A DNA stretch of 64,000 nt from Gracilinanus agilis (Eukaryota), in NCBI RefSeq assembly GCF_016433145.1, contig NC_058133.1, positions 389,697,456-389,761,455 on the forward strand, read 5' to 3'. Shown here piece by piece: positions 1-57,811 of this stretch. A model generated the notes under the pieces. It searched no databases. It was not told the origin of the DNA and was given only the letters and a program-made list of their open reading frames with translations. The position numbers were made by a program, and so were the translations under genes. Position 1 is the first letter of the stretch; every line of letters begins with the position of its first letter.

Positions 1-629
1 TCCAACCAAGGTCACAGTACGCATTTCAGGGATATGTATTGCCATATCCTGGGTCTGTTCAATAACATACAGTTTTTCTCTCATTTACACAGGGGTCAGT
101 GATGATGGGTTGGAGGATCTGGTCATTGCTCTCAGTTGTGTGGGAGGTTGCCAGTCTGCAATGAATCAAGACTGGGTTCTCACTGCATTTCTCTTGTTTT
201 TAATACCAACAGTTGCTATGCTCATCATATATGGCAAAAATTTTTTAGTGGCTAAACAGCAGGCTAGAAAGATTGAAAGTATCAACAGCCAAATGCAGGC
301 TTCTGCAGAGAGCTATAAGGATAGAGTAGCCAAAAGAGAGAAAGGCTGCTAAAACATTAGGGATTGCTATGGCTGTGTTTCTTGTCTGCTGGCTGCCATA
401 TTTCATTGATACGCTAATTGATGCTTATGTGAATTTCATAACTCCAGCTTATGTCTATGAGATCTTATTGTGGTTTATTTATTATAGTTCGGCTATGAAT
501 CCTTTGATCTATGCCTTCTTTTACCCTTGGTTTCGGAAAGCAATAAAGCTCATTGTGAGTGGCAGAATCTTGAGGAATGATTCTTCATCAATGAATTTAT
601 TTTCTGAAGAAGTGGAAATCCACAACTGA
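1..629 (+). pseudogene. TAAR9-like trace amine-associated receptor pseudogene, 3' part (TM4 to C-terminus; 5' end outside the window), with a 2-bp frameshift
   Basis: The frame starting at nt 2 reads [17 protein letters not shown]...[13 protein letters not shown]...YKDRVAKRE and is colinear with the gene at 13980. Here AAAA-GAGAGA-AAGG (332-345) replaces AAAA-GAGAGAGA-AAGG, giving TAA at 350-352. TM6-TM7 continue in another frame (369-629), where NSAMNP has become SSAMNP. Confidence 0.88.
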
Positions 630-1871
630 GAAAAATCTTGGCAAAGAATTCCAAGGTAATGATGATTAAAAATGAAAGGTAAAATAGAATCTCTTGGACA
701 GTTCAAGAAATGTAATCTACTTGTTTCTCAAATTCATAGAAAACTGCTTTCAAATGGTGATAATCCTGAGACATTTTTTACCTTCATATATACTCAGATG
801 TTATTTTCAAGTTAATATCAGAAGTAGATAGTGCTTATTGACAAGGTCAAATTTTTATAAAACTTTGTTATGAGTGAAGATGATCCAAGGATGGCAAAGA
901 CAGAAGCAGAGATTCAATATGCACCAAAATATCCATAGCAGCCTTTCTTGAGATGGCAAAGAACTGGGTACAATATCGATTTCCATTAATAAGGAAAGGA
1001 CTAATTTGAGAAATCATCATGTTTAATTTAAATTAAATTCATATTAAATAAGAAATGATGGAGAGGAGAAATTTGACAAATATAAGATTTGTATGAACTT
1101 ATGTACAATGAAATAGCAGAGGCAGAACAATATACAGGGGCAACTAGATGGCTTTGTGAAAAAAGGTTTAAGCTTTTGAGATGGGAGGTCCTGGGTTCAA
1201 ATGTATTCTCAGATACTTCTATTTCTTTGACTTTGGGCAATTTACTCTTCTGCCTTAAAACTAACAAATAGTATTAATTCTAAAATGGAAGTGAAGGTTT
1301 TAAAAAAAAGAAATCTAAATACAATGTCCCCCAAAATGTAAAACAAAATGTCATTAGATGGGATTAAAACTCTGACAAAAAGAAAAATGAGAGAAATCCC
1401 AGAGCACAGATAATGAAACCTAAGTCCTTCTTCTAAGCAAGGAGGTGAGAAATTGTGAGAGTAGAATTGTGGAAATTAAGTCTGATGTAGTTATTCTATT
1501 AGTGGTTTTTTTTTGTGGTTTGCTTAACTGTATTTTTGTATTACCAGGAAAGGTCCAGTTCTGTGTGGAGAGGTAAGGTGACATAAAAGGGATTTAATGA
1601 ACTGTAAGTGATATAAAAACAGAAAGCATTAATAAATCTTTGTGTTGAAGGGATTAAACATGTCATTATCCTCACATATACTCATTTGATAAGAAAATAG
1701 ATTAGAGTTGGGAAAGACTAAACTTTGTCCTTGTCCTTTTGCTTCTTTCTTCAAATAACTGAAATTTTACATTTTTTATACCTTTTCCATCAATGTTTGA
1801 GGCCAAATATAAAGGAAATAGCAGCAACTAGTATTTACATGAACACTTTAAGGTTTGTAGGGAGATTTACA

Positions 1872-2394
1872 TGTAAGGGTCTCAAAAGACAAAGGTCTGT
1901 TGACCCTTGATGTCAGGTGAGGTCCAGGGTCTGAAAAGGCAAAGGTCTGTTGACACCTGATGTTAGGTATGTCCAGGTCTGGCTAAGGCCTAGGATCCCT
2001 CAGTTTCCACATTTCCCAACAAAGTTGTTGATAGAATTTATAATCTTTTCCCAGTCTTCTTTCCCAGATCTTTTCTCCAGACATAAAAACATGTTTTATC
2101 AGCACCTGCTTCTCCTCTTTCTCAGTTCCCATTATGTACCCAGTTACCCTCACCTTTAGTTCCTTGCTCAAGGTTCATCTTTCAAGGATACCTTGTTTTG
2201 AGAAAGTTGCTTGGATTTCCATTAGAAAAATTCCTTATGGTTTCCGGCTTTATAAACTCATTCAATAAACTGCACTTGGTTGCCATCAGCCATTGAGGTC
2301 CTTCTGATCCCTGACTTTGACTTGACTCTTTTTTCCCCAGCCCTTACTTAGGGTACTCTTGGGCCCATTCATCCCCTCCCTCGGGGCATTTACA
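1872..2394 (+). mobile_element. Solo LTR, 523 bp, with a 6-bp TSD (ERV2/ERVK-like TSD length)
   Basis: TG...CA ends (TGTAAGGG...TTTACA). Flanks are TTTACA (1866-1871) and TTTATA (2395-2400). AATAAA near 2264. About 50-bp internal tandem repeat (aaaggtctgttgac...). The paralogous flanks near 15975 and 37605 lack it. Confidence 0.8.
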
Positions 2395-2930
2395 TTTATA
2401 GATATCTCTTTTTAATCATAGGAGGATTTTAGGATATGCGTATAATTGTTCCCATTTTTCAACTGTGGAAAATGAGGCAGACATAGGCTAACCAACTTGT
2501 CCAGGATGACACAGTCAGTGAGTATCTGAGGTTGAGTTTGAATGCAGTCCTTATTATTCAACAATCAATGCTGTCCTTATTTTGCCATCTAGTTGTCTGA
2601 AAACAGCAAATAATTACTGGAAACAACCCCAAAACAAAATATGTTGCAAATAATAAAATATTAAGACCAAAAATATACTAATCTCTATTTTCTGTGATTT
2701 TTAAATAAAACACTGTAAATTCTCTTTGATATTTTAGTGTATTTTGTTTCTTCTTTTAGAGGTTAAGTAAGGTCCCTACCTGCCTTCTTTTGGGCTTTGA
2801 ATGGGAGAGATAGCAAAAAGATAGCCCAGTTTCCGGTAAATCTATTTATATCACCTCTCTTCTAGTTATTTCTACATCTACACAATAGAGAAATTTTTTC
2901 CACAAAATTGTAAGATATGGGGTTATGTTG

Positions 2931-4057
2931 TGTTATGTAGAGATGGCTGCATGGAATCCCTGCAAAAATACAGGGACAGCCTCACCCACCTGGAACTTTG
3001 GGTGAGGCTGTCCCTGTATTTTTGCAGGGATTCCATGCAGCCATCTCTACTGTAGTACAGCGAGAGGGGGGGTCATGACAGTTTTTTCAAACTTTGACTG
3101 AGTTCTGAAATCAGTTAGGAGTTTAGAATCTTGAAGGAGAGTCTCAGTTGGTTCTGGGATCTCTTGGTGAGAGTGTCAGACCAGCTGAGCTGCTTCTTTG
3201 CCTATCTGTAGAATTGAAAATTGAGTCTAGCTTTGGAATATTTATTTAAGAATTGTTAGTTTAGATAAACCCTTTGTATCTCCATAACCTACCTCATTTC
3301 CTACCTTCCTTCCCTTACCTTAAATGTCTGTGGAGTGAATAAGGAGAGTAAATCAGAGAGTAGTTCAAATCTGTGAGGGGTTTAACTATAATTTGACAGT
3401 ATTTTATCTAGAGAAGTTAGTTAATCATCTTCTTATTCCCTTTAGATTTCAAAGATCACCTTGAGAGCTGAGTTAAGGCAGGACCTTGCTCAAACCCCAT
3501 CTCTGCCTCCCTTCTCCCACCTGAGGTTTCTTTAAGCAACTGTTAGGGCTACCATTAACCCCCTTTTCCTGACAATTCAACCTTAAAGACCATAAACCCT
3601 TTTGTGTTTCAACAGACCTGTTAGTTACTTTGTCAGTTAATTAGTAAGAGAGGGAAGAAGAGGGAAAGAACCAACATATACTCTGGGCTTGAAGGGAAGC
3701 CGGGTTTCCATCTTGAAGTAAGGTGTAACTTCAAAACAAGTCCCTTCCTGTGAAATTAACTAAAGCCTGTAGTTAATTTCAGTTCAGTCTATTTCCCTCA
3801 GTTTGTCTTTAGTCTAAGTCCTAGCCTATAAGCCCTGCTGTCTTTGCCTATTTAGATTAATTCCTTCTTTCCCTGAAGAATTTTGTTCCCTTCAGTTCTA
3901 TACTCCGTGACTTCAGCCTTATATTATATCCTGAATCTCCCTGTTCCAGTCTACCTGTAACCCATATTACTTACCTAGCAAGTCCCTGACAACCTCCCTT
4001 CAAAATCCCCTTTTACCACACACCTTTCCCAAATTCTCCCCATTACACTACATAACA
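2931..4057. mobile_element. 126-bp fully palindromic mini-element (58-bp arms, 10-nt loop), interrupted near its right end by an LTR
   Basis: 2937-2988 is the exact reverse complement of 2999-3050. After removing the LTR at 3051-4047 and one CTAC copy, the arms extend to TGTTAT (2931) and ATAACA (4052-4057). GTTG flanks both sides (2927-2930, 4058-4061). Confidence 0.8.
3051..4047. mobile_element. Solo LTR, about 1 kb, ERV1-like (family B, copy 1)
   Basis: TGTAGTA...CCCCATTACA ends with a 4-bp TSD CTAC (3047-3050, 4048-4051). Roughly 85% similar by eye to 5877-6869. Confidence 0.85.
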
Positions 4058-4300
4058 GTTGAATAGTAGATAAAGTGCCAGGTCAGGAATAAGAAAGACA
4101 TCTTTCTGAGTTCTAATCTGTCTCCCTATGCTTACTACCTATATGACCCAGGGCAAGTCATTTAACTATGTTTGCCTCAGTTTCTTCATCTCTAAAATGA
4201 ACTGGAGAAGAAAATATCAAACCACTCAGTATCTTTGCCTAGAAAACCCTAGCTGAGCTCATGATGACTCAGAAAAAACTGAAAGAACTCAACAACAAAA
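4058..4300 (+). mobile_element. MAR1/MIR-type CORE SINE; its head was split by the palindromic element
   Basis: CORE (gacccagggcaagtcatttaac...cctcagtttc) followed by an RTE-like tail (ctggagaagaaaat...aaaccactcagtatctttgcc...aacaacaa). Paralogous copies near 16530, 28790 and 38155. Confidence 0.7.
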
Positions 4301-5265
4301 CATACATACCAACAGATTGGTGGTTGTTTGGAAAATTTTCCAAATACTTCTTCCTTCCTGTCCCTGTTAGTGTCTGTGTCTTCCATTCATATGCTGAACA
4401 TTGGTTATTGTTCAGCCATTTCAAGTGGATGGAAATATATTTTAAACAATGAATTGGATTAAATGTGAAATATTTTCGTAACTTGTCTCTATGTTTCTAT
4501 ATCAATTTTTCTTCCTTCTTGCAACATTCCCTTAACTCTGAGTTGGGTTGTTCACATTAAAATGTTGTTTTTGAAAATGTGGTCTTTCTTTTATGCATGG
4601 AGGATGGCTCAAGCTAAAGGTTCTTCCATCATTTTAGAACCTGTCCTACTATACACCAATAAAACTCCACCAAATACCAAGATGTTCTTTAACCATTATG
4701 TAGATAGCAGTGTTGCAGAGATTTAAAAATAATAGTACTATGAACCTGTATTCTTAATTAACTTCAAATGAAAGCTAATAAAGAATTAAGCCAAAAAAAG
4801 CAAATATTGTCCTTTGCAAATTTTGTTAATGCATTAACATGGTCACCACTGCTTCTGAGCTCTGGGTTTTAGAATTCTAAATCCTGGCTTCCTTCTGCTC
4901 CTCTATGCAGCCTCTAAGCTGTCATTCCAGGTGGGGCAAGTACACCAATTATTACAAAACTACCACAAGGAGAGCCTATCATATGCTTGTATGCTGTGAC
5001 ATTTAGGGCCTCTCGGCCTTCTAGAGGGTTCAAGGACTTCTAGCCTTTGTCCTTGATGCCTTGTTCTTTCCCCAGGCAGCTTGCTGTGGGGCTTTCCCCC
5101 TATCTTTTCAGTCTTATATTTAAACACCTGATTGTATCAAGGTTCAGACTTTTAATAGGCGTAGCAACTCCCTGGCTTACCTCTGTGACACCTGCATCAT
5201 GTCTACTTCCTGAGGCTCTAAAATTCTATTTCAGACTTAAAAATTGTTACTTTTCAGGTCCCTTC

Positions 5266-7204
5266 TGTAACAGACCAAGGGGCCAAGCAAGACAGCATTT
5301 GATGGAACTCTGAGGATCCAGGAGAGTTGGCAGATGGGCTGAGGCTGAGAATTCTGGGAACTGAAAACCAAGGGACTCTCACTGTTCTCTGGGCCTTTTG
5401 GGAAGGAAAGGGAGGTGGGTGGCAGTATTTCCTTGAGACCCTGAATACCTCAAAAAGCCTAAATCTGAGATTTTACCAGGTCTTCTGCTACTATAGCCAA
5501 CCTTATTGATTCTCCATCTTCAGTGAACATCTGGGAAGACAAATATTGCAGTTTCCCCTGTGGCCTAGGAGCCAGAGACTCTGGTGGGAGGGAGTGGCCC
5601 TTGGGGGGCTAACTAAGCCTTGGTTGGGTTTAGTTATTGCTCTTCCCTATTTAGCCATTTATAACCTTTTAGGATAGGAGTTTTACTGGAGTCCTGAGTC
5701 AATTAACTAAGATTGAAAGTTACAGAAGAAATCTAGTTACTGCTCAACCCTGGAAGAGACTGAGAATAGATTATCAATAGTTTCATCATCATCCTCTTCC
5801 CCAAAATCTTTCCCCTTAATCCCTGACTACCTTGTTACTGAATAAACCCCAGTTGAGTTGTTTTAAGGCAGAGTTGTGTAGTATAGAGAGAGGGGGTCAT
5901 GATAGTTTTTTCAAGCTTTGGCTGAGTTCTGTAATCAGTTAGGGGTTTGGAATCTTGAGGGAGTAAAGTCAGTTGGTTTTGGGTTTCTCATGGAGAGGGT
6001 TCAGACCAGCTGAGGGCTTCCTTACCTATCTGTAGAATTGAAATTCAGCCTGGCTTTGAAATATTTATTTAAGAAATTGTTATTTAGATAAACCCTTTGT
6101 ATCTTCCTTCCCTATTTTATTTCCTACCTTCTCTCCCTTACCTTATATGTCTGTGGAGTTAATTAGGAGAGTAATTAGAGAGGAGTTCAAATCTGTGAAG
6201 GGTTTAACTATATTTTGATAGTATTAATATATAAAGAAACTAGTCAGTCATCATTTATTCCCTTTAGATATCAAGAGCATTTTGTAAGCTGAGTTAAAAG
6301 CAGGTCCTTACTCAGACTCCATCTCTGCCTCCCTTCCCCCCACCTGAGGTTCCTGAGACAACGGTTAGGGCTTCCTTTAATCCACCTTCCTGACAAATCA
6401 TCCTTTAAAGATAATAAACCCTTTTGTGTTTCAACAGACCTATTAGTATAATTTGTCAGTTAGTTATTAAGAGAGGGAAGAAGAGGGAAAGAACCAACAT
6501 ACTCTGGGTTGAAGGGAAGCCGGGGTATCCATCTTGGAGGAAGGTGTAACTTCATAACAAGTCCCTTCCTGTGAAATTGACTAAAGCTTGTGGTTAATTT
6601 CAGTTCAGTCCATTTCTCTTAGTTTGTCTCTGAGTCTAAGTCTCAGTCTGTAAAGCCTGCTGTCTTTGCCTGTTTAGTTTAATTTCTCCTCTCCCTGAAG
6701 ATCTCTGTTTCCCTTCTGTGTTATACTCCTGACTTCAGCCCTATTATATCCTGAATCTCCTTAATCCCAGCCTACCTGTAACCTAGATTACTCATCTAGC
6801 AAGTCCCTGACGACCTCCTTTCTAAATTCCCTTTTACCACACACCTTTCCTCAAATTATCCCCATAACAGTTGGAAGAGTGATTTCAAGGTGGGAGGCAG
6901 CATCATGTGGGTGGTGTGTGGAAGGAATACAAACTCCATATTGGTGGGCAGTCAGTTTGGGGTAGGGGAGGCTTGACCCCAAATAACCTGGTAATTAAGG
7001 GGAGTCATTTGGGTCAATTCAAATCCCAATATCCCCCTCTATCCTTTCTACCCGGGTGCATCCATTTTGGAGAACCTCCTTGTGTGCTATATTCTAAGAG
7101 TCTCCATAACAAGGAGGGGTGGAGTGAGTGGATTGATCCCATATCCAGTCAGCTAGAGGGGTTACCAGAACACACCCCATCTATTATCTAACCCCCTTCT
7201 TACA
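5266..7204 (+). mobile_element. Solo LTR, about 940 bp net, ERV1-like, containing a nested LTR
   Basis: TGTAA...TTACA ends with a 4-bp TSD CTTC (5262-5265, 7205-7208). AATAAA near 5841. The empty site is visible near 17640-17660. Confidence 0.85.
5877..6869. mobile_element. Solo LTR, 993 bp, ERV1-like (family B, copy 2), nested inside the LTR at 5266-7204
   Basis: TGTAGTA...CCCCATAACA ends with a 4-bp TSD GTTG (5873-5876, 6870-6873). Homologous to 3051-4047 along its whole length. Confidence 0.85.
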
Positions 7205-9391
7205 CTTCACAATGCCCTGCCCCCTCTCACAAATGAAGAAATATGGAGCAATGTAAAAAGTGGAGGTAAGGATATAACATTTCTGGAATTGGAGATAATG
7301 TGTGCAGCAACATTAATAAAAAAGAAGATGGAAAGATGTCTGTGGAAAACAGCAAAGCCTGTTTAAAGGGGCCATGGAGGACAGAAAGGTGAATAATTTA
7401 AAACAAGTCTGGAAAAACAGATTGAATCCAGGCTATGATTGACTTTAAATCACAAGGAAGAAAAAGAGTGAGCAGATGCAAAGCAGTATTTAAACCTCGA
7501 AGCTCAAAGAATATTATAGATATTGATGTGTGAAAGGACCATTGAAACTTTACACATTTGAAGTTTTTTTTTTCCATAGAAAGTAGAGTTAGAATCCCTG
7601 AAAAAGGAAAGATTTTTCCACATTCCACATTATGTTGGTGTAGACATGCAGATGTCACTAGCAAAAGAGAAATAGCCTTTCTCAGTCAGAGAAATTAGGT
7701 TATACTCAATGTTTGGAGAACACTGGATCTGCCAAAGCAGGCATGTGGGATACCAGACCAGAATACTCAAGCAGTATGCTATCTTCCCAGGGTGTGTATC
7801 TAGCAAAGGAGTTCCCACCCTTTCCCAGACTATATGGCCCTTAGCTTTCAGTAAACCTCTAGGCGTTCAACATGAAAATAAATAAATTACAGAGTAGACT
7901 GTGCTTATACAGCTAAAAATTAAAACAAGATCATTTTATTAATTTTTCATAGAGAAAATATATATGAAACAGATTTCTTTTTCATTAACATTACTAATTT
8001 TTGAAAAGTTCAATAAAACTACATATTCATTAATGTTTTCTATACATCCTTGACAAACTTCTCATATCCCCAAATATATGTGTACTCCAGATTAGTAACC
8101 TTTACTATGGAAGTGACAAGTAAAGTAATGTCCAAAATTTGCTAAACCTCACAACTATTGAACCAAATTCCATTGAATCAGCCAATCATCCTCAAATGTG
8201 CCATTAATGGGAATGTTTCCATTTCATTTGGGTATACATCTTCCCCAAGATGTCCATCCATCCACTCTTTTTCTCCTCCTTTAAAAAAAATTACAATGAC
8301 TTCATTTTTAATTCCTCTTAATTCTGGAGATTTACAATAGAAAGGAAAGTCAGAACTGAAAGTGAACTCAAAAGAAATTTAACATATGCCACGCCTAAAA
8401 AATTGTCTGTACAATGTCCCTTATAGGTAACATTTACTTGAAAATCTCTAATAACAAAAACAAACCACACAATCTTTCACAACCAAGCTACTGTCTCTAG
8501 TATGAAGCCACTTTACCCTTTTGAGAAACGGAAACTCTTGGTGATTTTTTTCCCCTTGCATGGAAAGTCAGTCTGGCTCTCTTCTTTTTTCAGAACTTAG
8601 TCTTGCTTCTTCCATCTGAGGTCCAACGTCTGATCTCTTTCCATTAGGAAATCCAGTAAATGAGACAATTATCTACAAAGTGTTATTGATGAGACTGTTT
8701 ACACACTATGTTGGTAGTTTTTTTATTCATGCTGTCCATCGGCTACATTCTTTTTTTTTCTTCCTCTTCCTACTTACAATAGTTCATTACAGACAGGCAC
8801 AGGGACTACTAACCTATTTCTGAACAAATGGAATATCAGTTCCTTTCATCTATTCCTTAATCCTCCTTATCATCTCTAATAATTCCTTATTTCTCTCACT
8901 ACAGAAGATGACATTATGGCTTATCTATATATTTGTACTCAGTTTTTGCTTAGTCTTTGAAGGTCTGGCTTCAGTACGATGCATTGGAGCAGAGCCGTGA
9001 CTATTGGCTCATAACAGTGATCCTCCTATTAGGGTGGTTGTGATTGGAGGATTGTTTTAGCTTTGAAGTTCTGAATTGTAGTAGCTCAGCCTCTCAGGTT
9101 CCTTAATAAGTCTAGCATCAATACTGTGAACCATCAGGAATGCATGCATGTGGGCACAATATATTGGCTAAAGAGAGGAAAACTAAGCAGTAAACAGAGC
9201 AGATCAAAGTTCTCCTACTGATCAGTAAGGTAATTGGGCATGGTTTTTAGCCAGGGAAAGACAGGGAGTTGCAGATTTAAAACCAAACAAACAAATAAAA
9301 AAACATTAAAGATATATAGAAGCAAAACGTATCCTTTAAAGACTTTAATTCCAAAAAGACATCTAGGTTTTTGTTTGGTCAACTAACATAG

Positions 9392-10298
9392 TGTAAGAAA
9401 TGAAGCAAGCCCTGGTATTTTGGACAAACTGCTTGAAATATTGGAGAAGGAGGAGCCCAAGTGACAGAAGAGCAGAGATTTCTGGGAGAGGGAACCCCAA
9501 CCAAGGGTCTTTTTGCAGGCTAGAGCTGAGGAGGACAGTCGTGAATCCAGGCTCTGTGATCCCTGAAGAGATATTTGGGTTTCCTGGTCTATATTAGGAG
9601 ACCTGCTTCCTGTGACATCTTGTTCCAGTGTTTCACTTGTACCATCTACAGAACTAAATGGAGTTTGGGGTTCCTGGACTTCCTCTGGGGAGCTGTTCCC
9701 TGAACCCACCTTTCTTGGGTTTTGCTCAGCAGTATCCCTCATAGATGAATAGCCAACATAGCTTTTAGGAATATAATTAGTGGGTTCAAGAAGGTGAAGT
9801 TTTGGTCCGGGGACACCTTGTCTCACCTTCACGTCTGCCTTAATGAAGGACCTTGGCATAGGGATTACCTACACCTCCCTTTCCTAATGTTACCTTACCT
9901 CAATCCCTATTGCCTTATTGTCCTAGATTAAACTCCCGAGATTTCTATATCTGATCTGCTTGATTCAATTGGAGGGAGGCTAACTCCGAAGGGATAGAGA
10001 AGAGAGTCAAGCTGATTTCCATTTTAAGTCTGACCTCCTGCTGGGAGAAAGGGGAAGTTTCTGTGTACCCCGACTGGCACCGACATCATTTTGGGGTGTC
10101 ATTCATTTCTCCTAGAGGGGACACTATTCCTTCAACCCCTCTATGCTGGTATGCCCTTCGAGGATCCCCTGTTTTCCAAGAGGATCCCCTTTTGTCAACC
10201 AGTAATAGAGGTGGCTGTGAGGGAAGAGGAGTCATTCACACTTGACTTGCTGGTCTTCAACTATACCCTCAATCCTCCTGAACACCCCAATTCTTACA
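9392..10298. mobile_element. Solo LTR, 907 bp
   Basis: Perfect 8-bp inverted ends TGTAAGAA...TTCTTACA. Flanks ATAG/ATAA (3 of 4 match). GC-richer than its surroundings and absent from the paralogous unit. Confidence 0.7.
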
Positions 10299-13200
10299 AT
10301 AAGTGCAGATTGTATTTATCATTTATTTATTATACATTTATCATTTCCTTCTAAATTCTGTGTCCTCATATTCCCAATCTTTCTTTTACCTTTCACTGTG
10401 ACTCCAGCCTTCATCTCAGACCGTTAGAAGCATCTAGAGTCAGGAAGACCTAACTTCAAATCCATTCTCAGAAACTCATTAGCATTATGATCCTGGGAAA
10501 GTCATTTAGCCTGTTAGCCTCAGTTTCCTCATTTATGTAAGAGAGATACTAAGAGTATCTTTCTATTAGAAATCTTGTGATAAAACGTGATAATATTTTT
10601 TATAAAATATGTTTAAACCTTAAATGCAATTGTATGTGCTCGTTTTTCAGTTAAAAATCTTGAAAATTCTTTCTGCCCTTGTGTCTGCTTTTCACTGACT
10701 ACCACTTACTCTTTGTGGTTGGACTTCTGTTCCTCACAACACTAGTGAAATTGTTTTCTTTAAAGTCACCAGGACCAGGTCATCAAATTAAATTGTCTTT
10801 TCTCAGTCTTTCACTTCTCCTCAGATTTTGACACTGATGACCATGCCATTATGCTCTTTATTTTCTCTTTCCTTGGATTTAGGAATAATATTCTACTGGC
10901 CTTTCTTTTACCTCTTTTTCTGCCTACTATAAAATCTTCTTATCCTCTTTATGACTCTCCTATCTGGGCTTTTCAAAGTGTCAGTACTGGGCCCTCTCAG
11001 TCTATTGCATCTCCAGAGTCAAGACTCTCCTGGAATTCTCACTCATTCTCACAACTTTAACTACCATCTAGAGCACCATCTAGGCAGATACTTTATATAT
11101 AATTTTTATCTCTATTCCTATCCTTTTCCTGGCATCTAGAACCACATTTTAACCTGAATGTCTCACCATCACCTCAATTTCAGTATATCCAAAATCTGTC
11201 TCAGTAACTAGGAACAAGTCACTTAATAATACTGAACTTCAGGTTTCTAAATTATAAAAATGAAATAAAAGGAATCATTTGTACTAAGTAATCTCTAAAG
11301 TTTCTTCCAAAACAAAGTTTATAATTTGGCAATTCCCCCTAAAACTATAGTAGATTTCACTATTTTTCTTCTGTGGTGCTTTCATGCGGGCTTCCCTGTT
11401 TATAGTATTGAGATTATTTTTTACTTATAGTTCTCTCATAGCTCAAATATCCATTTATGTCCAGACTTGGTTGATTCCACATGTATAGAAGGATGTATTT
11501 GTAAATGTTTGACAAGTGGTACTAAAAATATTTAAATGGATATTTATCAAGACATTTTAAAGCTAAATCTTCATTATTTACTTTTTCTTTATCAATTCCT
11601 TAATTCTAGATAATCTAAAAATAATAACTCAGGTACTTATTTATAGCATTGATTGATTTCTAAGGTGTAAATGCTCACACTGAAATTTTAAACAAAGATT
11701 CTCTTGCATTCAGTGGGTCTGATATGACAGAATTATTTTGTTACAATCAAATTATTCCTTTTTTGTGATTTTATTGTGAGTTTGACATGTCCATTTCCTT
11801 CTAATTCTTTCCTGGAGGTCTTTATTCTGACTGATATTTTTTAGCATTTTGATCTGTGTTCTTCTGGGCCCACCAACACATGAAGGTCCCTTGGTAACAA
11901 GAGATTGATTATCATAAGGAAGAAAATCACATGAAGAGCTTTGGTGGGATGGCACACCTTGAAAGCTAGAACTATACTGGTTTCAACTTGGTATCACCAG
12001 TTCCTGGCATCATGCCTTTTTTGTTAAATTACAGTCCAATTCAGCAAATATTTATTATGTACAAGTGAGAACATGAAACAGATATTGGAGATATTTAAGG
12101 GTAGAAGTAGAGGAAAAATCATGGCAGTTGTATTAGAGGAAGAAAGATGAACCAAGCAATAACTCCTCTGTGATTCTGAGCCTGAGAGTCTTAAATTGCC
12201 CTATAAACAGGAGACAAGAGTGTATTTTAAAAATAATTTTTAATGGAAGTTAAGATATCCAATGGTTGATCTTTTATTTGTTTGTTTATTATTTGCTTAT
12301 TTGATTTTAAGGATGTGATTCCTTCTCAGATGTAATTTAGAAAACATGACTTCAAAGGGACTATGTAACTCTGAAATTCAATAATTTGATAATTCCCTTT
12401 TCCCAAAATCAGAAGTATTTCTTCCTGTAGTCTGGTCTCTTTTTGCTCCACTCAAAAACTTCCTTTTTCATCTTTCATTCTACAATTTCATTTCTCCTCA
12501 GTTACAGGTGTCTTTGTAATAGTTTCTTGATTTCTAATATTCTCATAAATATTCTGGTAGCTATTTAGCAAAATGAATAAAGAATTAAAAGTAGAGTCAG
12601 GAATATAGAAATTCAAATACTGCCTCACATAATCACTGGTTATATAACCCATGGTAAATCATTAATTGCTCTCTGCCTCAGTTTATTTATCTATACAATG
12701 GAGATAATAATAGTTCTTTTTGCAAGGATCACTTGTGATCATATAAACACGTTTTGCTTACCTTTAAGTGTACATATTGTATCATCCTAGCTTTGTTTGC
12801 TGCGGTCATTTTCCTTGCTATTGCTGTTATACTCATATTTATACTTTATATACTTTTGCCAGTGAGGAAACAAGTTATAATTCAGTGTAGAATGTGTTGG
12901 GGGAAGTACGTCTCTGTCAGTTAGTGAAACAATTGTTTTCATCTCAAAATTTTTTCTTATTGAATACCCAAAACGAAACTCACAAGAAAATGGAATGGAA
13001 AGATACTATAAGGATTTATGTTGTCATTCTTTTTTTCTCAGAAATGTTTAATGCATGTAAATGGAAAATACAAAACATGTAAAAGAATTAACATTCTTTT
13101 TCAAATATTTTAAATCAAAAATATTTTTGCTTTCTTCAACCCGCTGTATACCAGAGACAGAGAATAATTTTATGTAGAAGTTATATTGCTATCATACAAA

Positions 13201-13979: not shown

Positions 13980-15062
13980 ATGGAGTTACATGAAGATTCA
14001 CATAGGGAAGTAGGGATTGACCATTCCTCCCAACTTATAGCTGTGCAGTTCTGTTTTGAGAATGTGAATAAATCCTGCATCAAAACCACATACTCCCCCT
14101 TTCCTCGAATAATTCTCTATGTGGTCTTTGGCTTTGGGATTCTGCTGGCAGTATTTGGCAACTTGCTGGTCATCACTGCCATTCTTCACTTCAAGCAGCT
14201 GCACACACCTACAAACTTCCTCATTGCCTCCTTGGCCTGTGCTGACTTTTTGGTTGGACTCACTGTGATGCCCTTCAGCATGGTGAGGTCAGTGGAAAGT
14301 TGCTGGTACTTTGGGGAGAGTTTCTGTAAATTTCACACCTGTTTTGATGGATCATTTTGCTATTCTTCTCTCTTCCATTTGTGTTTCATCTCTATTGATA
14401 GATATATTGCTGTCACTGACCCTCTGATCTATCCAACCAAGTTCACAGTGCGCATTTCAGGGATATGTATTGCTCTCTCCTGGGGTTGTTCAATAACGTA
14501 TAGTTTTTCTCTCTTTTACACAGGGGTCACTGATGATGGGTTGGAGGATCTGGTCATTGCTCTCAGTTGTGTGGGAGGTTGCCAGGGTGCAATAAATCAA
14601 GACTGGGTTCTTGTTGGATTTCTTTTGTTCTTTATACCAACAATTGCTATGCTCACTATATATGGCAAAATTTTTTTAGTGGCTAAACAGCAGGCTAGAA
14701 AGATAGAAAGTAGTAGCAACCAAGCTCAGGCTTCTGCAGAGAGCTATAAAGAAAGAGTAGCCAAAAGAGAGAGAAAGGCTGCTAAAACATTGGGAATTGC
14801 TATGGCTGTGTTTCTTGTCTCCTGGCTGCCATATTTCATTGATATACTAATTGATGCTTATATGAATTTCATAACTCCAGCTTATGTCTATGAGATCTTA
14901 TTGTGGTTTGTTTATTATAATTCGGCTATGAATCCTTTGATCTATGCCTTCTTTTACCCTTGGTTTCGGAAAGCAATAAAGCTCATTGTGAGTGGCAGAA
15001 TCTTGAGGAATGATTCTTCATCAATGAATTTATTTTCTGAAGAAGTGGAAATCCACAACTGA
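13980..15062 (+). CDS. TAAR9: Trace amine-associated receptor 9-like (class A olfactory GPCR), 360 aa, single coding exon
   Basis: [24 protein letters not shown]3.32 (CFD123GSF), [21 protein letters not shown] and [11 protein letters not shown] are all present, with the TAAR9-type C-tail NLFSEEVE. Strong Kozak context AATATGG. One of several paralogs, so 1:1 orthology is not established. Confidence 0.93.
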
Positions 15063-25319: not shown

Positions 25320-26402
25320 ATGGAGTTACATGAAGATTCACATAGGAAAGAAGGGATCAACAGTTCCTCCCAACTTATGGCTGTGCAGTTCTGTTTTGAG
25401 AATGTGAATAAATCCTGCATCAAAACCACATACTCCCCCTTTCCTCGAATGATTCTCTATGTGGTCTTTGGCTTTGGGATTCTGCTGGCAGTATTTGGCA
25501 ACTTGCTGGTCATCACTGCCATTCTTCACTTCAAGCAGCTGCACACACCTACAAACTTCCTCATTGCCTCCTTGGCCTGTGCTGACTTTTTGGTTGGACT
25601 CACTGTGATGCCCTTCAGCATGGTGAGGTCAGTGGAAAGTTGCTGGTACTTTGGGGAGAGTTTCTGTAAATTTCACACCTGTTTTGATGGATCATTTTGC
25701 TATTCTTCTCTCTTCCATTTGTGTTTCATCTCTATTGATAGATATATTGCTGTCACTGACCCTCTGATCTATCCAACCAAGTTCACAGTGCGCATTTCAG
25801 GGATATGTATTGCTCTCTCCTGGGGTTGTTCAATAACGTATAGTTTTTCTCTCTTTTACACAGGGGTCACTGATGATGGGTTGGAGGATCTGGTCATTGC
25901 TCTCAGTTGTGTGGGAGGTTGCCAGGGTGCAATAAATCAAGACTGGGTTCTTGTTGGATTTCTTTTGTTCTTTATACCAACAATTGCTATGCTCACTATA
26001 TATGGCAAAATTTTTTTAGTGGCTAAACAGCAGGCTAGAAAGATAGAAAGTAGTAGCAACCAAGCTCAGGCTTCTGCAGAGAGCTATAAAGAAAGAGTAG
26101 CCAAAAGAGAGAGAAAGGCTGCTAAAACATTGGGAATTGCTATGGCTGTGTTTCTTGTCTCCTGGCTGCCATATTTCATTGATATACTAATTGATGCTTA
26201 TATGAATTTCATAACTCCAGCTTATGTCTATGAGATCTTATTGTGGTTTGTTTATTATAATTCGGCTATGAATCCTTTGATCTATGCCTTCTTTTACCCT
26301 TGGTTTCGGAAAGCAATAAAGCTCATTGTGAGTGGCAGAATCTTGAGGAATGATTCTTCATCAATGAATTTATTTTCTGAAGAAGTGGAAATCCACAACT
26401 GA
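25320..26402 (+). CDS. TAAR9: Trace amine-associated receptor 9-like, 360 aa; 354 of 360 residues identical to the gene at 13980
   Basis: Intact ORF with all TAAR motifs. Differs from 13980-15062 only at residues 10, 11, 14, 15, 20 and 44. Confidence 0.93.
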
Positions 26403-33949: not shown

Positions 33950-34993
33950 ATGAGTGAGAGCAATGGGATTCAGCCAGCAGCTGTGCAGCTCTGCTATGAA
34001 AATGTCAATGGCTCTTGCATTCAGACTCCCTACTCCCCAGTACTCCGAGTCATCCTCTACCTGACCTATGGCACAGGGGTTGTGCTGGCTGTCTTGGGAA
34101 ACCTTCTGGTCATGATTTCAATCCTTCACTTCAGGCAGCTGCATTCTCCAGCCAACTTCCTCATTGCCTCCTTGGCTTGTGCTGACTTTCTGGTGGGAGC
34201 CACTGTGATGCCCTTCAGCATGGTGAGGTCTGTGGAGAGTTGTTGGTACTTTGGCAACAGTTACTGTAAACTTCATACTACTTTTGATGTGGCATTTTGT
34301 TATACTTCCCTCTTTCACTTGTGCTTCATCTCTATTGATAGATATATTGCTGTCACTGACCCTCTAACTTATCCAACCAAGTTCACATTCTCTGTCTCTG
34401 GGCTATGTATAACCCTCTCCTGGACCTTTACGATGTCTTACAGTGGTTCTGTTTTTTACACAGGTGTCAATGATGATGGACTGGAGGAGTTAGTAAGTGC
34501 CCTCACTTGTGTGGGAGGCTGTCAGATTGCTGTGAACCAGAAATGGACCTTAATACATTTTCTGTTGTTTTTCACGCCCAGCCTCATTATGATCATTCTT
34601 TACTCTAAGATTTTTCTAGTAGCTAAAGTGCAGGCTAGAAAGATTGAAAGCACAGGTAGCACAGGGGAATCTTCATCTGCAGACAGTTACAAAGCCAGAG
34701 TGTCCAAGAGGGAGAGAAAAGCAGCCAAAACACTGGGCATAGCTGTGATTGCATTCATGATTTCATGGTTACCCTACTCGCTTGACTCAGTAATTGATCC
34801 TTTTCTTGGTTTCATCACCCCTGCCTATGTTTATGAGATTTGCTGTTGGTTTGCTTATTATAACTCAGCAGTGAATCCCCTGATTTATGGTTTCTTTTAC
34901 CCTTGGTTTCGAAAAGCTGTAAAACTCATTGTCACTGGCAAAGTCTTAGAAAATGGCTCTTCAAGCATGAATTTGTTTTCTGAACAAGAATGA
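33950..34993 (+). CDS. Trace amine-associated receptor, TAAR6/TAAR8 clade, 347 aa (His at 5.43)
   Basis: [25 protein letters not shown]113 (3.32), [34 protein letters not shown] and NSAVNPLIY. Mixes TAAR6- and TAAR8-type signatures, so no symbol is assigned. Confidence 0.92.
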
Positions 34994-36017: not shown

Positions 36018-39000
36018 GAAAGATTTGGGCATAGAATTCCAAAGTAATGTGCATCAAAAATTAAAGGTAAAATAGAATCTCTGATGGGCAACTGAAGAAA
36101 TGTAATCAATTTCTTTTTCAAATTCATAAAAATTGCTTTTGAATGGTGTAAGTCATGAGACATTTCTTGTCATCATGCATTCACGTTATTTTCAAATTCA
36201 TATCAGAAGTAGATAGTGTTCACTGACAATGTTAAATTTTAATACAAGTTATGAGATGAGTGATATTCAGCCAACGAGGCCACAGATAGAAGCCAAGATT
36301 CAGTGTGAACCCAAATATTCATAGCAGCCTTTCTTGTCATGGCAAAGAACTGGAGACAATGTTAGTTCTCATTATTAAGAGAATGAAGTGGTGGGGGAAT
36401 CATTATATGTAAACTAAATTAAATTTTATTTGCCAAGAAAGGATGGATAGGCAGAATTAGGAAACATAAAATGATTTATGGGAACTGAAGCACAATGAAA
36501 TAGCAGAGGCAGAACAACATAAAGATGCAGATAAATGGCAGAGGAGAAAGAGAACCAGGCCAGGAGATGGGAGGTCCTGGTTTCTAATCTGTCCTCAGGT
36601 GCTTCCTAGTTGTGTGACCTTCCACAAATTACTCATCACCTATTGTCTAGTTCTTACCACTCTTTTACCTTCAAAAAATATGTAATACTATATAATCAGA
36701 ATTTGCTCCCTGGGACTCTAAATCCCAGCTTCCCAAGTTTCTTCTCATGTTACATACTAACAGAGGGAAGATATAAGTTTGGTGTAGCTCCACACTCTTT
36801 TTTTTCACTCTGATCACAGCTGGTGGAGGTGGGGTGAGTGCCAGGTAGGAGAATTTTTCACACGTGGTCATACTTAAGTTTTGTACTTTGTTCTTTTATT
36901 TCTTCTACTTCAAGTGATTTATATATATATGTATATATAAGATTAATAAATCTTATAAAATATAATATTTGTAGTTATTGGATATTAATTTTAATCTTGC
37001 AATACTGATTCCAAAATGGAAGGTAATGGTTAAAAAAATAAAAGATTAATATATACAGTGATTCCAACAATATAAATCAAAAGGTCACTAGATGCAAACC
37101 AAACTCTGAATAACTGAAAAATCAAAACTACTCCCAGAGAACAAATAATGAAAACATAATTTTCTCTTCTTAGCAAAGAGGTGAGAAGGGTAGAATGTTT
37201 TGGATACAAAGTCAGATGTATTTATTCTATTAGTGATTTTTTTTGTATATTTGCTTAACTTTTTCTTTCTTAGGAGGCATGGTCCAGTTCTGTGTGAAGA
37301 GGTGAGGTGAGGTAAAAGGGATTTTACAGAATTGCTAGAGATATAAAAACAGAAAGCATCAATAAACCTTTGTATGTTCAGTGAAGGGATTAAACTAGTT
37401 ATTATCCTCATCTATACTCATTTCATAAGAAAATAGATCAGGATTGGGAAAGATTGAACTTTGTACTTCTCCTTTGGTTCTTCCTTCAAATAACTTAAAT
37501 TTTTTATTTTTTCTTTAAACCATTTCTCTCAATGTTTGGGATCCAATATAAAGGAAATAGCAGCATCTAGTAATTACATAAGCACTTTAAGATTTGCAGG
37601 GTGACTTATAGATATCTTTTCAAAATCATAGTAGGGATTTGGGAGATGGGAATTATTATTTCCAGTTTTCAGTTGAGGAAACTGAGACAGCAAGCCAATT
37701 GACTTGTCCAGGATCACAGTCAATGAATAACCGAGGCTGAGTTTGAATATAGTTTGGTTTTTTTTTTTTTACTGCAAAATGAATGCTCTCTATTTTGTAT
37801 CAAGTTGCCTCAAAATAGTAAATCATTACTGAAAACTTCTAAAAGTGAAATAGGTTGTAATTAATAAAATAGTAGGACTAATGATATAATATTCTTTATT
37901 TTCTTTGATTTTTAAATAAAAACACTTTAAAAATTCTCTTTGATGTTATAATGATTTATGAGTTTTTTATTTCTTTTCCTCATTTGGAAGTTGGGGCTAT
38001 GCTTACCTTCCCAAGGGTTTTGAATGGGAGAGAAAATGTGAAAAAAAAAATAGTCTGATTTCAGGTAAATCTATTTGTATTGTCTGCCTAAGTAGTTATT
38101 TCTACTTCTACAAAATAAAGAATTTTTTTCCACAAAATTGTAGTACATACAATCAGGTAGAGCAGTGGAGAGTGCCAGGTCTGGATTAGGTAGTCTCCTC
38201 TTCCTGAATTGAAATCTGGCCCCAGACATTTACTAGCAATGTGACCCTGGGCAAGTCATTTAACTCTGTTTGCCTTAGAATCCTCATATGTAAAATGAGC
38301 TCGGGAGGGAAATGGCAAACCATTCAGTATCTTTGCAAAGAAAACCTTTAATGAGATCACGTTGGCTCAGAAAAAAACTAAACAACTCAACAAAAACAAC
38401 AAAACATAAATACCAACATATTTATGGTAGGTTTTAAAGATCTTCCAAATTCTTCTTTCCTTGTCCATGCCAGTGCCCATGTCTTTCATTTCTATGCTGA
38501 AAGTGCATTGTTGTTCATCCATTTCAAGTTGCTAGAAATATATTTAAAACAATAAACTGGATTTAAATGTAAAATGTTTTTGGAAATTGTGTGTATTTTT
38601 CTTCCTCAATTGAGATATGACATTACCTTACTTATGAGCTGGGCTCTTCACATTAGAATATGTTGATTTTGAAAATGTGACCTTTCTTTTACACATAGAG
38701 AATGACCCAAACAAAGCAAAATGGTTCTTTCATCATTTTAGAATCTATTCTGTTATGCACCAATAAAACTCCTTCCCCAAATATCAAGATGTTCTTCAAC
38801 CATTATGTGGAGAGATTTAAAAATAGAAGAACCATGAATCCATATTCTGAATTAGCGTGAAAAGAAAGCTAATAAAGGATTAAGCCAATATAATGCAAAC
38901 ATTGCCCTTTGCAAATTTTGTTAGTGTGCCAACATGGACACATATTTTACAAGTAGAGCTCATCATATGCTTGTATCTTTTGACATATAGGGAGCTCTTG

Positions 39001-44842: not shown

Positions 44843-45886
44843 ATGAGTGAGAGCAATGGGATTCAGCCAGCAGCTGTGCAGCTCTGCTATGAAAATGTCA
44901 ATGGCTCTTGCATTCAGACTCCCTACTCCCCAGTACTCCGAGTCATCCTCTACCTGGCCTTTGGCACTGGGGTTGTGCTGGCTGTCTTGGGAAACCTTCT
45001 GGTCATGATTTCAATCCTTCACTTCAGGCAGCTGCATTCTCCAGCCAACTTCCTCATTGCCTCCTTGGCTTGTGCTGACTTTCTGGTGGGAGCCACTGTG
45101 ATGCCCTTCAGCATGGTGAGGTCTGTGGAGAGTTGTTGGTACTTTGGCAACAGTTACTGTAAACTTCATACTACTTTTGATGCAGCATTTTGTTACACTT
45201 CCCTTTTTCACTTGAGCTTCATCTCTATTGATAGATATATTGCTGTCACTGACCCTCTCATCTATCCAACCAAGTTCACATTCTCTGTCTCTGGGCTGTG
45301 CATAGCTCTCTCCTGGACCATCACAATGACTTACAGTGGGTCTGTTTTTTACACAGGTGTCAATGATGATGGACTGGAGGAGTTAGTAAGTGCTCTCACT
45401 TGTGTGGGAGGCTGTCAGATTGCTGTGAATCAGAACTGGATCCTAATAGATTTTCTGTTGTTTGGTATACCCAGCCTCATTATGATTATTCTTTACTCTA
45501 AGATTTTTCTAGTAGCTAAAGTGCAGGCTAGAAAGATTGAAAGCACAGGTAGCACAGGGGAATCTTCATCTGCAGACAGTTACAAAGCCAGAGTGTCCAA
45601 GAGGGAGAGAAAAGCAGCCAAAACACTGGGCATAGCTGTGATTGCATTCATGATTTCATGGTTACCCTACACAATCGACTCATTAATTGATGCTTACCTT
45701 GGCTTCATCACCCCTGCCTATGTTTATGAGATTTGTTGTTGGTTTGCTTATTATAACTCAGCAGTGAATCCCCTGATTTATGGTTTCTTTTACCCTTGGT
45801 TTCGAAAGGCTATAAAACTCATCATCACTGGCAAAATCTTAGAGAATGGCTCTTCAAGCATGAATTTGTTTTCTGAACAAGAATGA
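44843..45886 (+). CDS. Trace amine-associated receptor, TAAR6/TAAR8 clade, 347 aa (Asp at both 3.32 and 5.43)
   Basis: Intact ORF with all TAAR motifs. D113 and D203 (NQNWILIDF) align with human TAAR6 D112/D202. Confidence 0.92.
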
Positions 45887-46662: not shown

Positions 46663-46866
46663 TTTTTTTTTTTAAAACCTTTACCTTCCATCTTAGAATC
46701 AATATCGTATATTGGTCCCAAGGCAGAAGGGTGGTAACAACTAGACAGTGGTGATTAAGTGACTTGCCCAGAATCACACAAGTAGGAAGCATCTGAGGCC
46801 AGTTTTGAACCCAGATCCTCCTATCTCTGGACCTGGCCCTCAATCCACTGAGTCACTTAGTTCCCC
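46663..46866 (-). mobile_element. SINE1_Mdo-like SINE
   Basis: Reverse-strand head, CORE and tail, with TSD ttagtcca(a/g)tat. Confidence 0.75.
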
Positions 46867-47059
46867 ACTTTAGTCCAGTATTTTGCTAAGAAAACTCCAA
46901 ATGCGGTCCCAAATAATTGGACAGGATTGAAACAACTCAACAATAACAGAAAACAATTGTTTCAGTCTTTTCACTCAACACAGAGTACTTACTGTGTGTA
47001 AACAACATCCTGAGTGATACAGAAATAAAATAAATGGTCCCTTCCTTATAATTAAAAGT

Positions 47060-47401
47060 AAAGAGGTCAGCTAGGTACCTCAGTAGATTGAGAGTTAGGT
47101 CTAGTGACAGGAAGTCCTGGGTGCATATTTGACCTCAGATACTTTCTAGCTATGTGACCCTGCACAAGTCACTTGGGCTTATCCTTATTTCTCCCACTTC
47201 CATATCTTTGCTCATTCTATCCAGCTTTTCTTGGAATGCACTTCAATTGCCCCTACTCCCCAAACTACTGAAGTCTAATCCTTCCAGGTCTACTTCTGAC
47301 ACCACGTAATTCCAATAAGACCTAGCCCTTACCACTCTTCTGCCTTGGAAACAATGCATCATAGTGATTCTCAGTAGGAAGGTAATAGTTTAAATGTAAA
47401 A
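47060..47401 (+). mobile_element. SINE1_Mdo-like SINE carrying a ~145-bp foreign insert
   Basis: TSD ataattaaaagt (47048-47059, 47402-47413). SINE sequence stops at gtcactt (47174) and resumes at cctagcccttacc (47321). Confidence 0.75.
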
Positions 47402-56767: not shown

Positions 56768-57811
56768 ATGACCTACAACATTGGATCCCAGCCTACATCT
56801 GTGCAGCTCTGCTACGAGAACATCAACGGTTCTTGCATTCATTTCCCCTACTCCAAAGGACACCGAGTCATGCTCTACCTGGCCTTTGGCACTGGGATTG
56901 TGCTGGCTGTCTTGGGAAACCTTCTGGTCATGATTTCAATCCTTCACTTCAGGCAGCTGCACTCTCCAGCCAACTTCCTCATTGCCTCCTTGGCTTGTGC
57001 TGACTTTCTGGTGGGAGCCACTGTGATGCCCTTCAGCATGGTGAGGTCTGTGGAGGGTTGTTGGTACTTTGGCAACAGTTACTGTAAACTTCATACTACT
57101 TTTGATGCAGCATTTTGTTATACTTCCCTCTTTCACTTGTGCTTCATCTCTATTGATAGATATATTGCTGTCACTGACCCTCTCATCTATCCAACCAAGT
57201 TCACATTCTCTGTCTCTGGGCTATGTATAACTCTCTCCTGGACCATCACGATGACTTACAGTGGTTCTGTTTTTTACACAGGTGTCAATGATGATGGACT
57301 GGAGGAATTAGTAAGTGCTCTCACTTGTGTGGGTGGCTGTCCAAGTGTTGTGAATCAGAACTGGATCCTAATAGATTTTCTGTTGTTTGGTATACCCAGC
57401 CTCATTATGATTATTCTTTACTCTAAGATTTTTCTAGTAGCTAAAGTGCAGGCTAGAAAGATTGAAAGCACAGGTAGCTCTGGGGAATCTTCATCTGCAG
57501 ACAGTTACAAAGCCAGAGTGTCCAAGAGGGAGAGAAAAGCAGCCAAAACACTGGGCATCACAGTGATTGCATTTCTAATTTCATGGTTACCCTACTCAAT
57601 TGACTCAGTAATTGATGCTTACCTTGGCTTCATCACTCCTGCTTATGTTTATGAGATTTGCTCTTGGTTTGCTTATTATAACTCAGCTATGAATCCCTTA
57701 ATTTATGCTTTCTTTTACCCTTGGTTTCGAAAAGCTGTAAAACTCATTGTCACTGGCAAAATCTTACAGGATGGTTCTTCAACCATGAATTTATTTTCTG
57801 AACAAGAATAA
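56768..57811 (+). CDS. Trace amine-associated receptor, TAAR6/TAAR8 clade (most TAAR6-like of the three), 347 aa
   Basis: Intact ORF with D113 and D203. [22 protein letters not shown] and NSAMNP resemble TAAR6. N-terminus differs from the other two genes. Confidence 0.92.

Follow-up and report, generated by a model that had tools for sequence, protein, structure and literature searches.

A short insertion between mammalian odour-receptor genes of the TAAR (trace-amine-associated receptor) group was confirmed to be a real, discrete and oddly built element of the integrase type: a perfect palindrome of 126 bp whose right arm is split by a solo LTR (LTR1). Most likely the palindrome is a one-off, folded-back retroviral end, and this is a likelier origin than a new kind of mobile element. 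More specifically, we propose, with a probability of about 0.45, that it is a single fold-back copy of one LTR-type end, placed at its site by an ERV1-class integrase. The window, i.e. the whole 64-kb stretch of DNA that was analyzed, is a tandem cluster of TAAR genes. Five of its six ATG-started ORFs of at least 150 aa are receptor-like, and the sixth lies inside the element labeled LTR4; the one TAAR-like ORF that was searched matched TAAR9 (E = 1e-185). The features of the region are listed in Table 1.

Table 1. Palindrome, inserted LTR and neighboring features, in window coordinates (TSD, target-site duplication)
Feature	Position	Strand	Remarks
Left TSD copy, GTTG	2927-2930		Host SINE sequence; corresponds to one position only (38157-38160) in a paralogous empty site
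Left arm, 58 bp	2931-2988		Starts TGTTA, which fits TGTNR
Unpaired loop, 10 nt	2989-2998		
Right arm, first 52 bp	2999-3050		Reverse complement of 2937-2988; its final 4 bases double as the left TSD of LTR1
LTR1, solo LTR of 997 bp, ERV1 type by structure only	3051-4047	-	Splits the right arm, with 6 bp of arm left beyond it; TG…CA ends and 4-bp TSD
TSD of LTR1, CTAC	3047-3050 and 4048-4051		
Right arm, final 6 bp	4052-4057		CA at end; reverse complement of 2931-2936
Right TSD copy, GTTG	4058-4061		
Host SINE, 5′ end hit by the insertion	4058-4300	+	Common to paralogous units; 12 further window matches at E<1e-3; aligned with 3 of them
LTR2, sister solo LTR, independent insertion	5877-6869	-	Comparison element; TSD GTTG (5873-5876 and 6870-6873)
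Intact TAAR-like ORFs	13980-15062, 25320-26402, 33950-34993, 44843-45886, 56768-57811		

The preliminary description of this DNA had noted 52-bp arms without a mismatch around a 10-nt loop. This proved exact at the base level, the two stretches being reverse complements at 52 of 52 positions. Across LTR1 the outermost six bases of the two arms also pair (6/6). Removal of LTR1 thus yields a 126-bp element with arms of 58 bp (58/58 paired) that is flanked by GTTG on both sides, as had been proposed, and the empty site described below backs these boundaries. Judged by composition, the chance that 4052-4061 would fit the arm end as well as the TSD is ~2e-6. When folded as RNA, the palindrome reached -107.4 kcal/mol (z = -20), and none of 200 shuffled sequences was equally stable. 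The rest of the window contains 13 perfect arms of at least 12 bp (loop of up to 100), all of them 12-14 bp long and mostly AT repeats. An inner inverted repeat, TCCCTG-8-CAGGGA, which had also been pointed out, is present in the arm but does not exceed chance: a 6-bp stem was found in 8.35% of 2000 shuffles, and the fold of a single arm (z = -1.41) was matched by 15 of 200 shuffles. The arm has no CpG and a TG observed/expected ratio of 2.07, values that come from 58 bp only and bear a weak resemblance to host-aged or CpG-poor ERV DNA.

Aligned one at a time, the left and right flanks of the palindrome matched the same paralogous regions, around 38,150 and 16,520, and both GTTG copies mapped to one paralogous position. 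From anchor to anchor, with GTTG counted once, the length is 20 nt here and 20 and 19 nt in two paralogues. This demonstrates a clean insertion with a genuine 4-bp duplication. Sixteen symmetric boundaries were tried; only 2931/4057 yields a 4-bp TSD, and none gives a longer exact one. The target was the 5′ end of a SINE, which we take to be a CORE-SINE of the Mar1 type; a SINE of this type would point to a marsupial as the mammalian host. The paralogous flanks are K2P 0.21-0.31 apart (four comparisons), a loose upper bound only on the age of the insertion.

MITEs of the Tc1/mariner type are flanked by TA and those of the hAT type by 8-bp TSDs. The TA parse (2936/4052) leaves 12 extra nucleotides against the paralogues. 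The hAT parse (2938/4050) is without a TSD, and no exact TSD longer than 4 bp exists at any of the 16 boundaries. These parses bear out the earlier opinion that hAT and Tc1 readings do not fit.

Within 2919-2940 the flank matches the start of the element at 8 of 10 bases (a 7-bp direct repeat with 10-bp spacing); 191 of 63,980 window positions match equally well. In addition, six of the eight bases ahead of the left TSD differ from a paralogue (P ~0.002).

Five LTR-like insertions in the first 1-10.4 kb of the window were delimited by hand, from sequence reading and self-BLAST gaps, and are called LTRs by structure only. They occupy 1872-2388, 3051-4047 (LTR1), 5266-7204 with 5877-6869 (LTR2) nested in it, and 9392-10298. 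Their lengths are 517-997 bp, all five begin with TGT, and their own perfect terminal repeats measure 2-8 bp. Four have 4-bp TSDs (CTAC, GTTG and CTTC exact, ATAG/ATAA with one mismatch); the TSD of 1872-2388 is 6 bp long. Four of the five 4-bp TSDs seen in this region (CTAC, GTTG twice and CTTC) fit the pattern S-W-W-S and ATAG/ATAA does not, which perhaps reflects a target preference of the integrase, the number of sites being tiny. Together with the palindrome, the five insertions lie within 8.5 kb (1872-10298), a local insertion hotspot; 1872-2388 and 5266-7204 at least are absent from the paralogous units. A 158-aa ORF on the minus strand (9383-9859) overlaps the element at 9392-10298 and is probably due to chance.

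In such a hotspot a later strike of LTR1 on the palindrome is not extraordinary, its probability being at most 1-10% per 126 bp. According to passages of PMC3279379, integrase prefers cruciform DNA in vitro and integrates near the loop, whereas LTR1 sits at the base of the stem. A weak preference for palindromes is described for plant LTR elements in PMC6911290.

With its TG…CA ends, 4-bp TSD and intact target, the palindrome works like the product of an ERV1-type integrase. The preliminary description had ascribed integrase-type ends to it, and the empty site together with the boundary scan supports this, TSD included, for a discrete insertion. The palindrome resembles a solo LTR of the ERV1 (gamma/epsilon-like) class in its termini and in the length of its TSD. 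Furthermore, the right end of LTR2, read inward, has the same first seven bases as the palindrome, and both insertions are flanked by GTTG. The palindrome differs from such LTRs in length (126 bp versus 517-997 bp locally) and in its inverted repeat (58 bp versus 2-8 bp). Neither a poly(A) signal nor a TATA box was seen in 2931-3050, which contains no AATAAA. Since a U3-R-U5 structure takes several hundred base pairs, an element of 126 bp with no AATAAA is not an intact LTR. MADE1 (mariner) and MER53 (hAT), which we take to be palindromic MITEs of mammals, are likewise short, non-coding, almost wholly palindromic and able to form miRNA-like hairpins, but the TA or 8-bp TSD that goes with them is excluded for the palindrome.

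As to known enzymes, passages of PMC12789967 give a 4-nt TSD for MLV, and passages of PMC4408412 describe in the Tasmanian devil an ERV1 family with 4-nt TSDs, the DNA transposons there being hATs; in PMC4408412 the strings 'Ginger' and 'palindrom' each have 0 occurrences. Membership in a Ginger-like group had been considered earlier and is not supported by the comparison. Passages of PMC2836005 describe Ginger1 as having TGTNR termini, TIRs of 40-270 bp and the TSD CCGG (75%) or CCGT/ACGG (24%), and Ginger2/Tdd as having TSDs of 4-5 bp, TIRs of about 50-180 bp and RTATAY as the preferred target. The palindrome shares with these groups its TGTNR terminus (TGTTA), a 4-bp TSD and an arm length (58 bp) within the TIR range. 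However, its TSD is GTTG and not CCGG or CCGT/ACGG as in Ginger1, and its target, T-GTTG-A, fits neither CCGG/CCGT nor RTATAY, the latter being a preference that is compared here with one site only. In the relevant passages of PMC2836005 and PMC5753468, the only vertebrate Ginger genes reported are the domesticated Gin-1 and Gin-2, and no Ginger repeats are reported from mammals. Ginger1/2 elements go with an autonomous partner that shares their TIRs and encodes a Gypsy-integrase-like transposase; neither a transposase nor such a partner was seen among the window's ORFs of at least 150 aa.

The preliminary description had further reasoned that the palindrome predates an LTR about 15% diverged from its sister copy, and that identical arms next to so old an LTR call for repair or selection. 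BLAST identity between LTR1 and LTR2 is indeed 84.95% over the full length, but this figure includes gaps; 122 of 980 aligned sites are substituted (K2P 0.137), and there are 27 indel events besides. Moreover, this is the distance between two independent insertions that may stem from different source lineages, and it therefore cannot date LTR1. The relative order holds for the outer 10-bp terminal repeat, which is older than the LTR1 that split it.

If the age of LTR1 corresponded to half of the LTR1-LTR2 distance, the probability of 0 mismatches in 58 pairs would be 3.5e-4. The observed 0 mismatches cap the per-copy divergence at about 2.6%. Fourteen base pairs beyond the reach of short post-LTR repair (the outer 6 bp and the two TSDs) are all intact, for which P = 0.15 at the old age; this leans weakly towards a young LTR1, the same pairs having also served to find the element. 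CpG decay in LTR1 gave no signal (one CG/CA pair, 0 TG/CA pairs), and GC-to-AT polarity between LTR1 and LTR2 is symmetric (48 versus 46). Within the LTRs of this family lies an inverted repeat of 15 bp (spacer, 1 nt), which is paired at 14 of 15 positions in LTR1 (3751-3781) and at 11 of 15 in LTR2 (6572-6602), hinting that LTR1 is the younger of the two. A counter-sign is that LTR1 has TTTAA (3324) where LTR2 has TATAA (6147). The internal clocks for the age of LTR1 are uninformative or conflicting, and the paradox of an old LTR with identical arms is not established. The step from identical arms to repair or selection is weak for a further reason: as described in passages of 10.1101/2023.04.19.537475, a template switch can form a perfect stem in one step, even without prior similarity, the events described involving 28 and as many as 83 bases. 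Even with an old LTR1, one such switch would re-perfect the stem, so that selection on a hairpin RNA is not required.

No second copy of the palindrome was found in the 64-kb window, the best stray match being 16 bp (E = 0.24), and alignment of the palindrome to the masked window scored at the null level. No degenerate relatives were present among the 25 longest of 50 inverted repeats in the window. Neither 12 local alignments of the arm to nearby LTRs (best p = 0.047) nor 30 end-anchored tests against ten local LTR ends (best p = 0.045) gave anything significant after correction. A prokaryotic origin with ends of the IS3/IS481 type was also considered, but records of plasmids (72,556) and phages (50,697) contained no blastn match to the palindrome at E <= 1. 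None of 18 Rfam matches reached the gathering score, the top ones fitting in shape only, and no tRNA was detected in 1-12000. In the literature covered, which comprised main texts and few subscription papers, no marsupial palindrome that combines TG…CA ends with a TSD of 4 bp was found. Passages of PMC4408412, PMC8056902, PMC3403934 and PMC4255032 name hAT and mariner as DNA transposons, alongside ERV1/2 and SINEs, and between them describe two coelacanth MITE-like insertions with TSDs of 3 and 8 bp.

The fold-back origin that we prefer could be explained as follows. A retroviral (ERV1-class) integrase would insert LTR-ended DNA, and a polymerase reading ~68 nt inward from one end would loop back and copy 58 nt. 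The likelier route is post-integration: a host template switch would collapse an ordinary solo LTR and rejoin at its short terminal repeat (2-8 bp in the local LTRs), thereby keeping the TG…CA ends and the TSD. In the other, pre-integration route, snap-back cDNA would supply two identical att ends. LTR1 would have landed later, within the terminal 10 bp of the palindrome. The identity of the arms would then reflect a young or re-copied inverted copy and not selection, and the palindrome would be a rare by-product, functionless and unable to mobilise again. Its single occurrence in 64 kb is consistent with this.

The palindrome is similar to the template-switch hairpins described in passages of 10.1101/2023.04.19.537475 in having a perfect stem obtainable in one step, an arm within 28-83 bases and a short loop. 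The difference is that its template would be an insertion with integrase ends and that the copy stops exactly at the boundary of that insertion. Because of the P value of 3.5e-4 under an old LTR1, the fold-back model needs either a young LTR1 or later re-copying. Against it, a multi-copy family has a much better chance of being represented in a random window than has an accident that happened once, and the collapse must rejoin exactly at the far end of the LTR. No described case of either route, integrating snap-back cDNA included, was found in the literature searched, and the term 'self-priming' does not occur in the passages of PMC12789967.

A real possibility, if not a probable one, is that the palindrome belongs to an undescribed multi-copy, non-autonomous (MITE-like) palindromic family moved in trans by an integrase-type enzyme. 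Of the two drivers for such a family, an ERV1 integrase is rather unlikely and an unknown Ginger-like transposase more unlikely still. A perfect palindrome could extrude two hairpins with one att end each, and a 126-bp donor would then need no bending. The anatomy suits this reading equally well, being that of a textbook MITE (short, non-coding, nearly all terminal repeat, with a clean TSD). Any one window would also be far more apt to contain an element with many copies, and one of those copies would more readily be struck by an LTR. The single copy speaks against a family, although 64 kb is far too small for a test. The literature searched yielded no such family. For the Ginger variant, the TGTNR terminus and the 58-bp arm agree with passages of PMC2836005, whereas the target fits neither group described there and vertebrate Ginger amounts to domesticated Gin-1/Gin-2 in the passages of that paper and of PMC5753468. 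In its boldest form, which we also consider unlikely, the palindrome would be the first example seen of a mammalian family whose perfect palindromes of ~126 bp parasitise, as DNA, the integrase of endogenous retroviruses. Each strand would form a hairpin with one att end, so that integration with a 4-bp TSD would require neither reverse transcription nor bending.

It is improbable that a foreign fragment was picked up during the repair of a double-strand break and inverted through templated synthesis of the polymerase theta type, with TG…CA ends and a 4-bp duplication arising by coincidence. The 8/10 match between the left flank and the first ten bases of the element would suit such an event, and the changed bases ahead of the TSD (6/8) look like the outcome of re-templating at the junction; moreover, any palindrome with TG on the left automatically has CA on the right. 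However, the host sequence shows no net loss or gain (20 nt versus 20 and 19), and both the TGTNR start and the exact 4-bp TSD are as in the neighboring LTRs. Very improbable, in our judgment, is that selection on an RNA (miRNA or endo-siRNA) made by read-through from the promoter of LTR1 has preserved the perfect hairpin, a view that fits either origin. Being on the minus strand, LTR1 adjoins the stem with its 3′ end (poly(A) signal at 3246) and points into the hairpin, the stem is very stable (z = -20), and LTRs can provide promoters to new hairpins, as stated in passages of 10.1101/2023.04.19.537475. On the other hand, the 18 Rfam matches stay below the gathering score, six 15-mer motifs of the arm are absent from the main text of the literature searched, and LTR1 has TTTAA at the TATAA of LTR2. 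Nor does selection predict 58/58 pairing, since miRNA stems tolerate mismatches. Perfect inverted repeats are also a known class of artefact, but a fold-back in the library or assembly is hardly credible here: the arm resumes 6 bp from its end beyond a 997-bp LTR with its own TSD, the second TSD comes next, and the flanks are collinear with the paralogues, which rules out a fold-back read as the source.

If the palindrome represents a family, that family would either parasitise retroviral integrase as DNA or form a Ginger-like lineage that was active recently in mammals. It would then blur the class I/II boundary, and hairpin donors for integrase would have an example in nature. A one-off, by comparison, would show that a single step can turn a solo LTR or snap-back cDNA into a palindrome resembling a MITE, and both MITE-like elements and LTR-driven hairpin RNAs might originate in this way.

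Some observations concern the remainder of the window. Similarity is 87-93% between the TAAR-like coding regions in some pairs and 67-80% between the flanks of other paralogous units, suggesting mixed duplication ages or gene conversion among the units. The TAAR copy at 1-630 has a 2-base deletion near 334 in comparison with the intact paralogue at 14432-15062 (92.7% identity); this copy, located in the sole tandem unit with the LTR cluster, is a probable pseudogene. Finally, arms of 116 bp that are 73% complementary and 186 nt apart occur at 46757-47174; a short interspersed repeat present twice, in opposite orientations, is their probable source.
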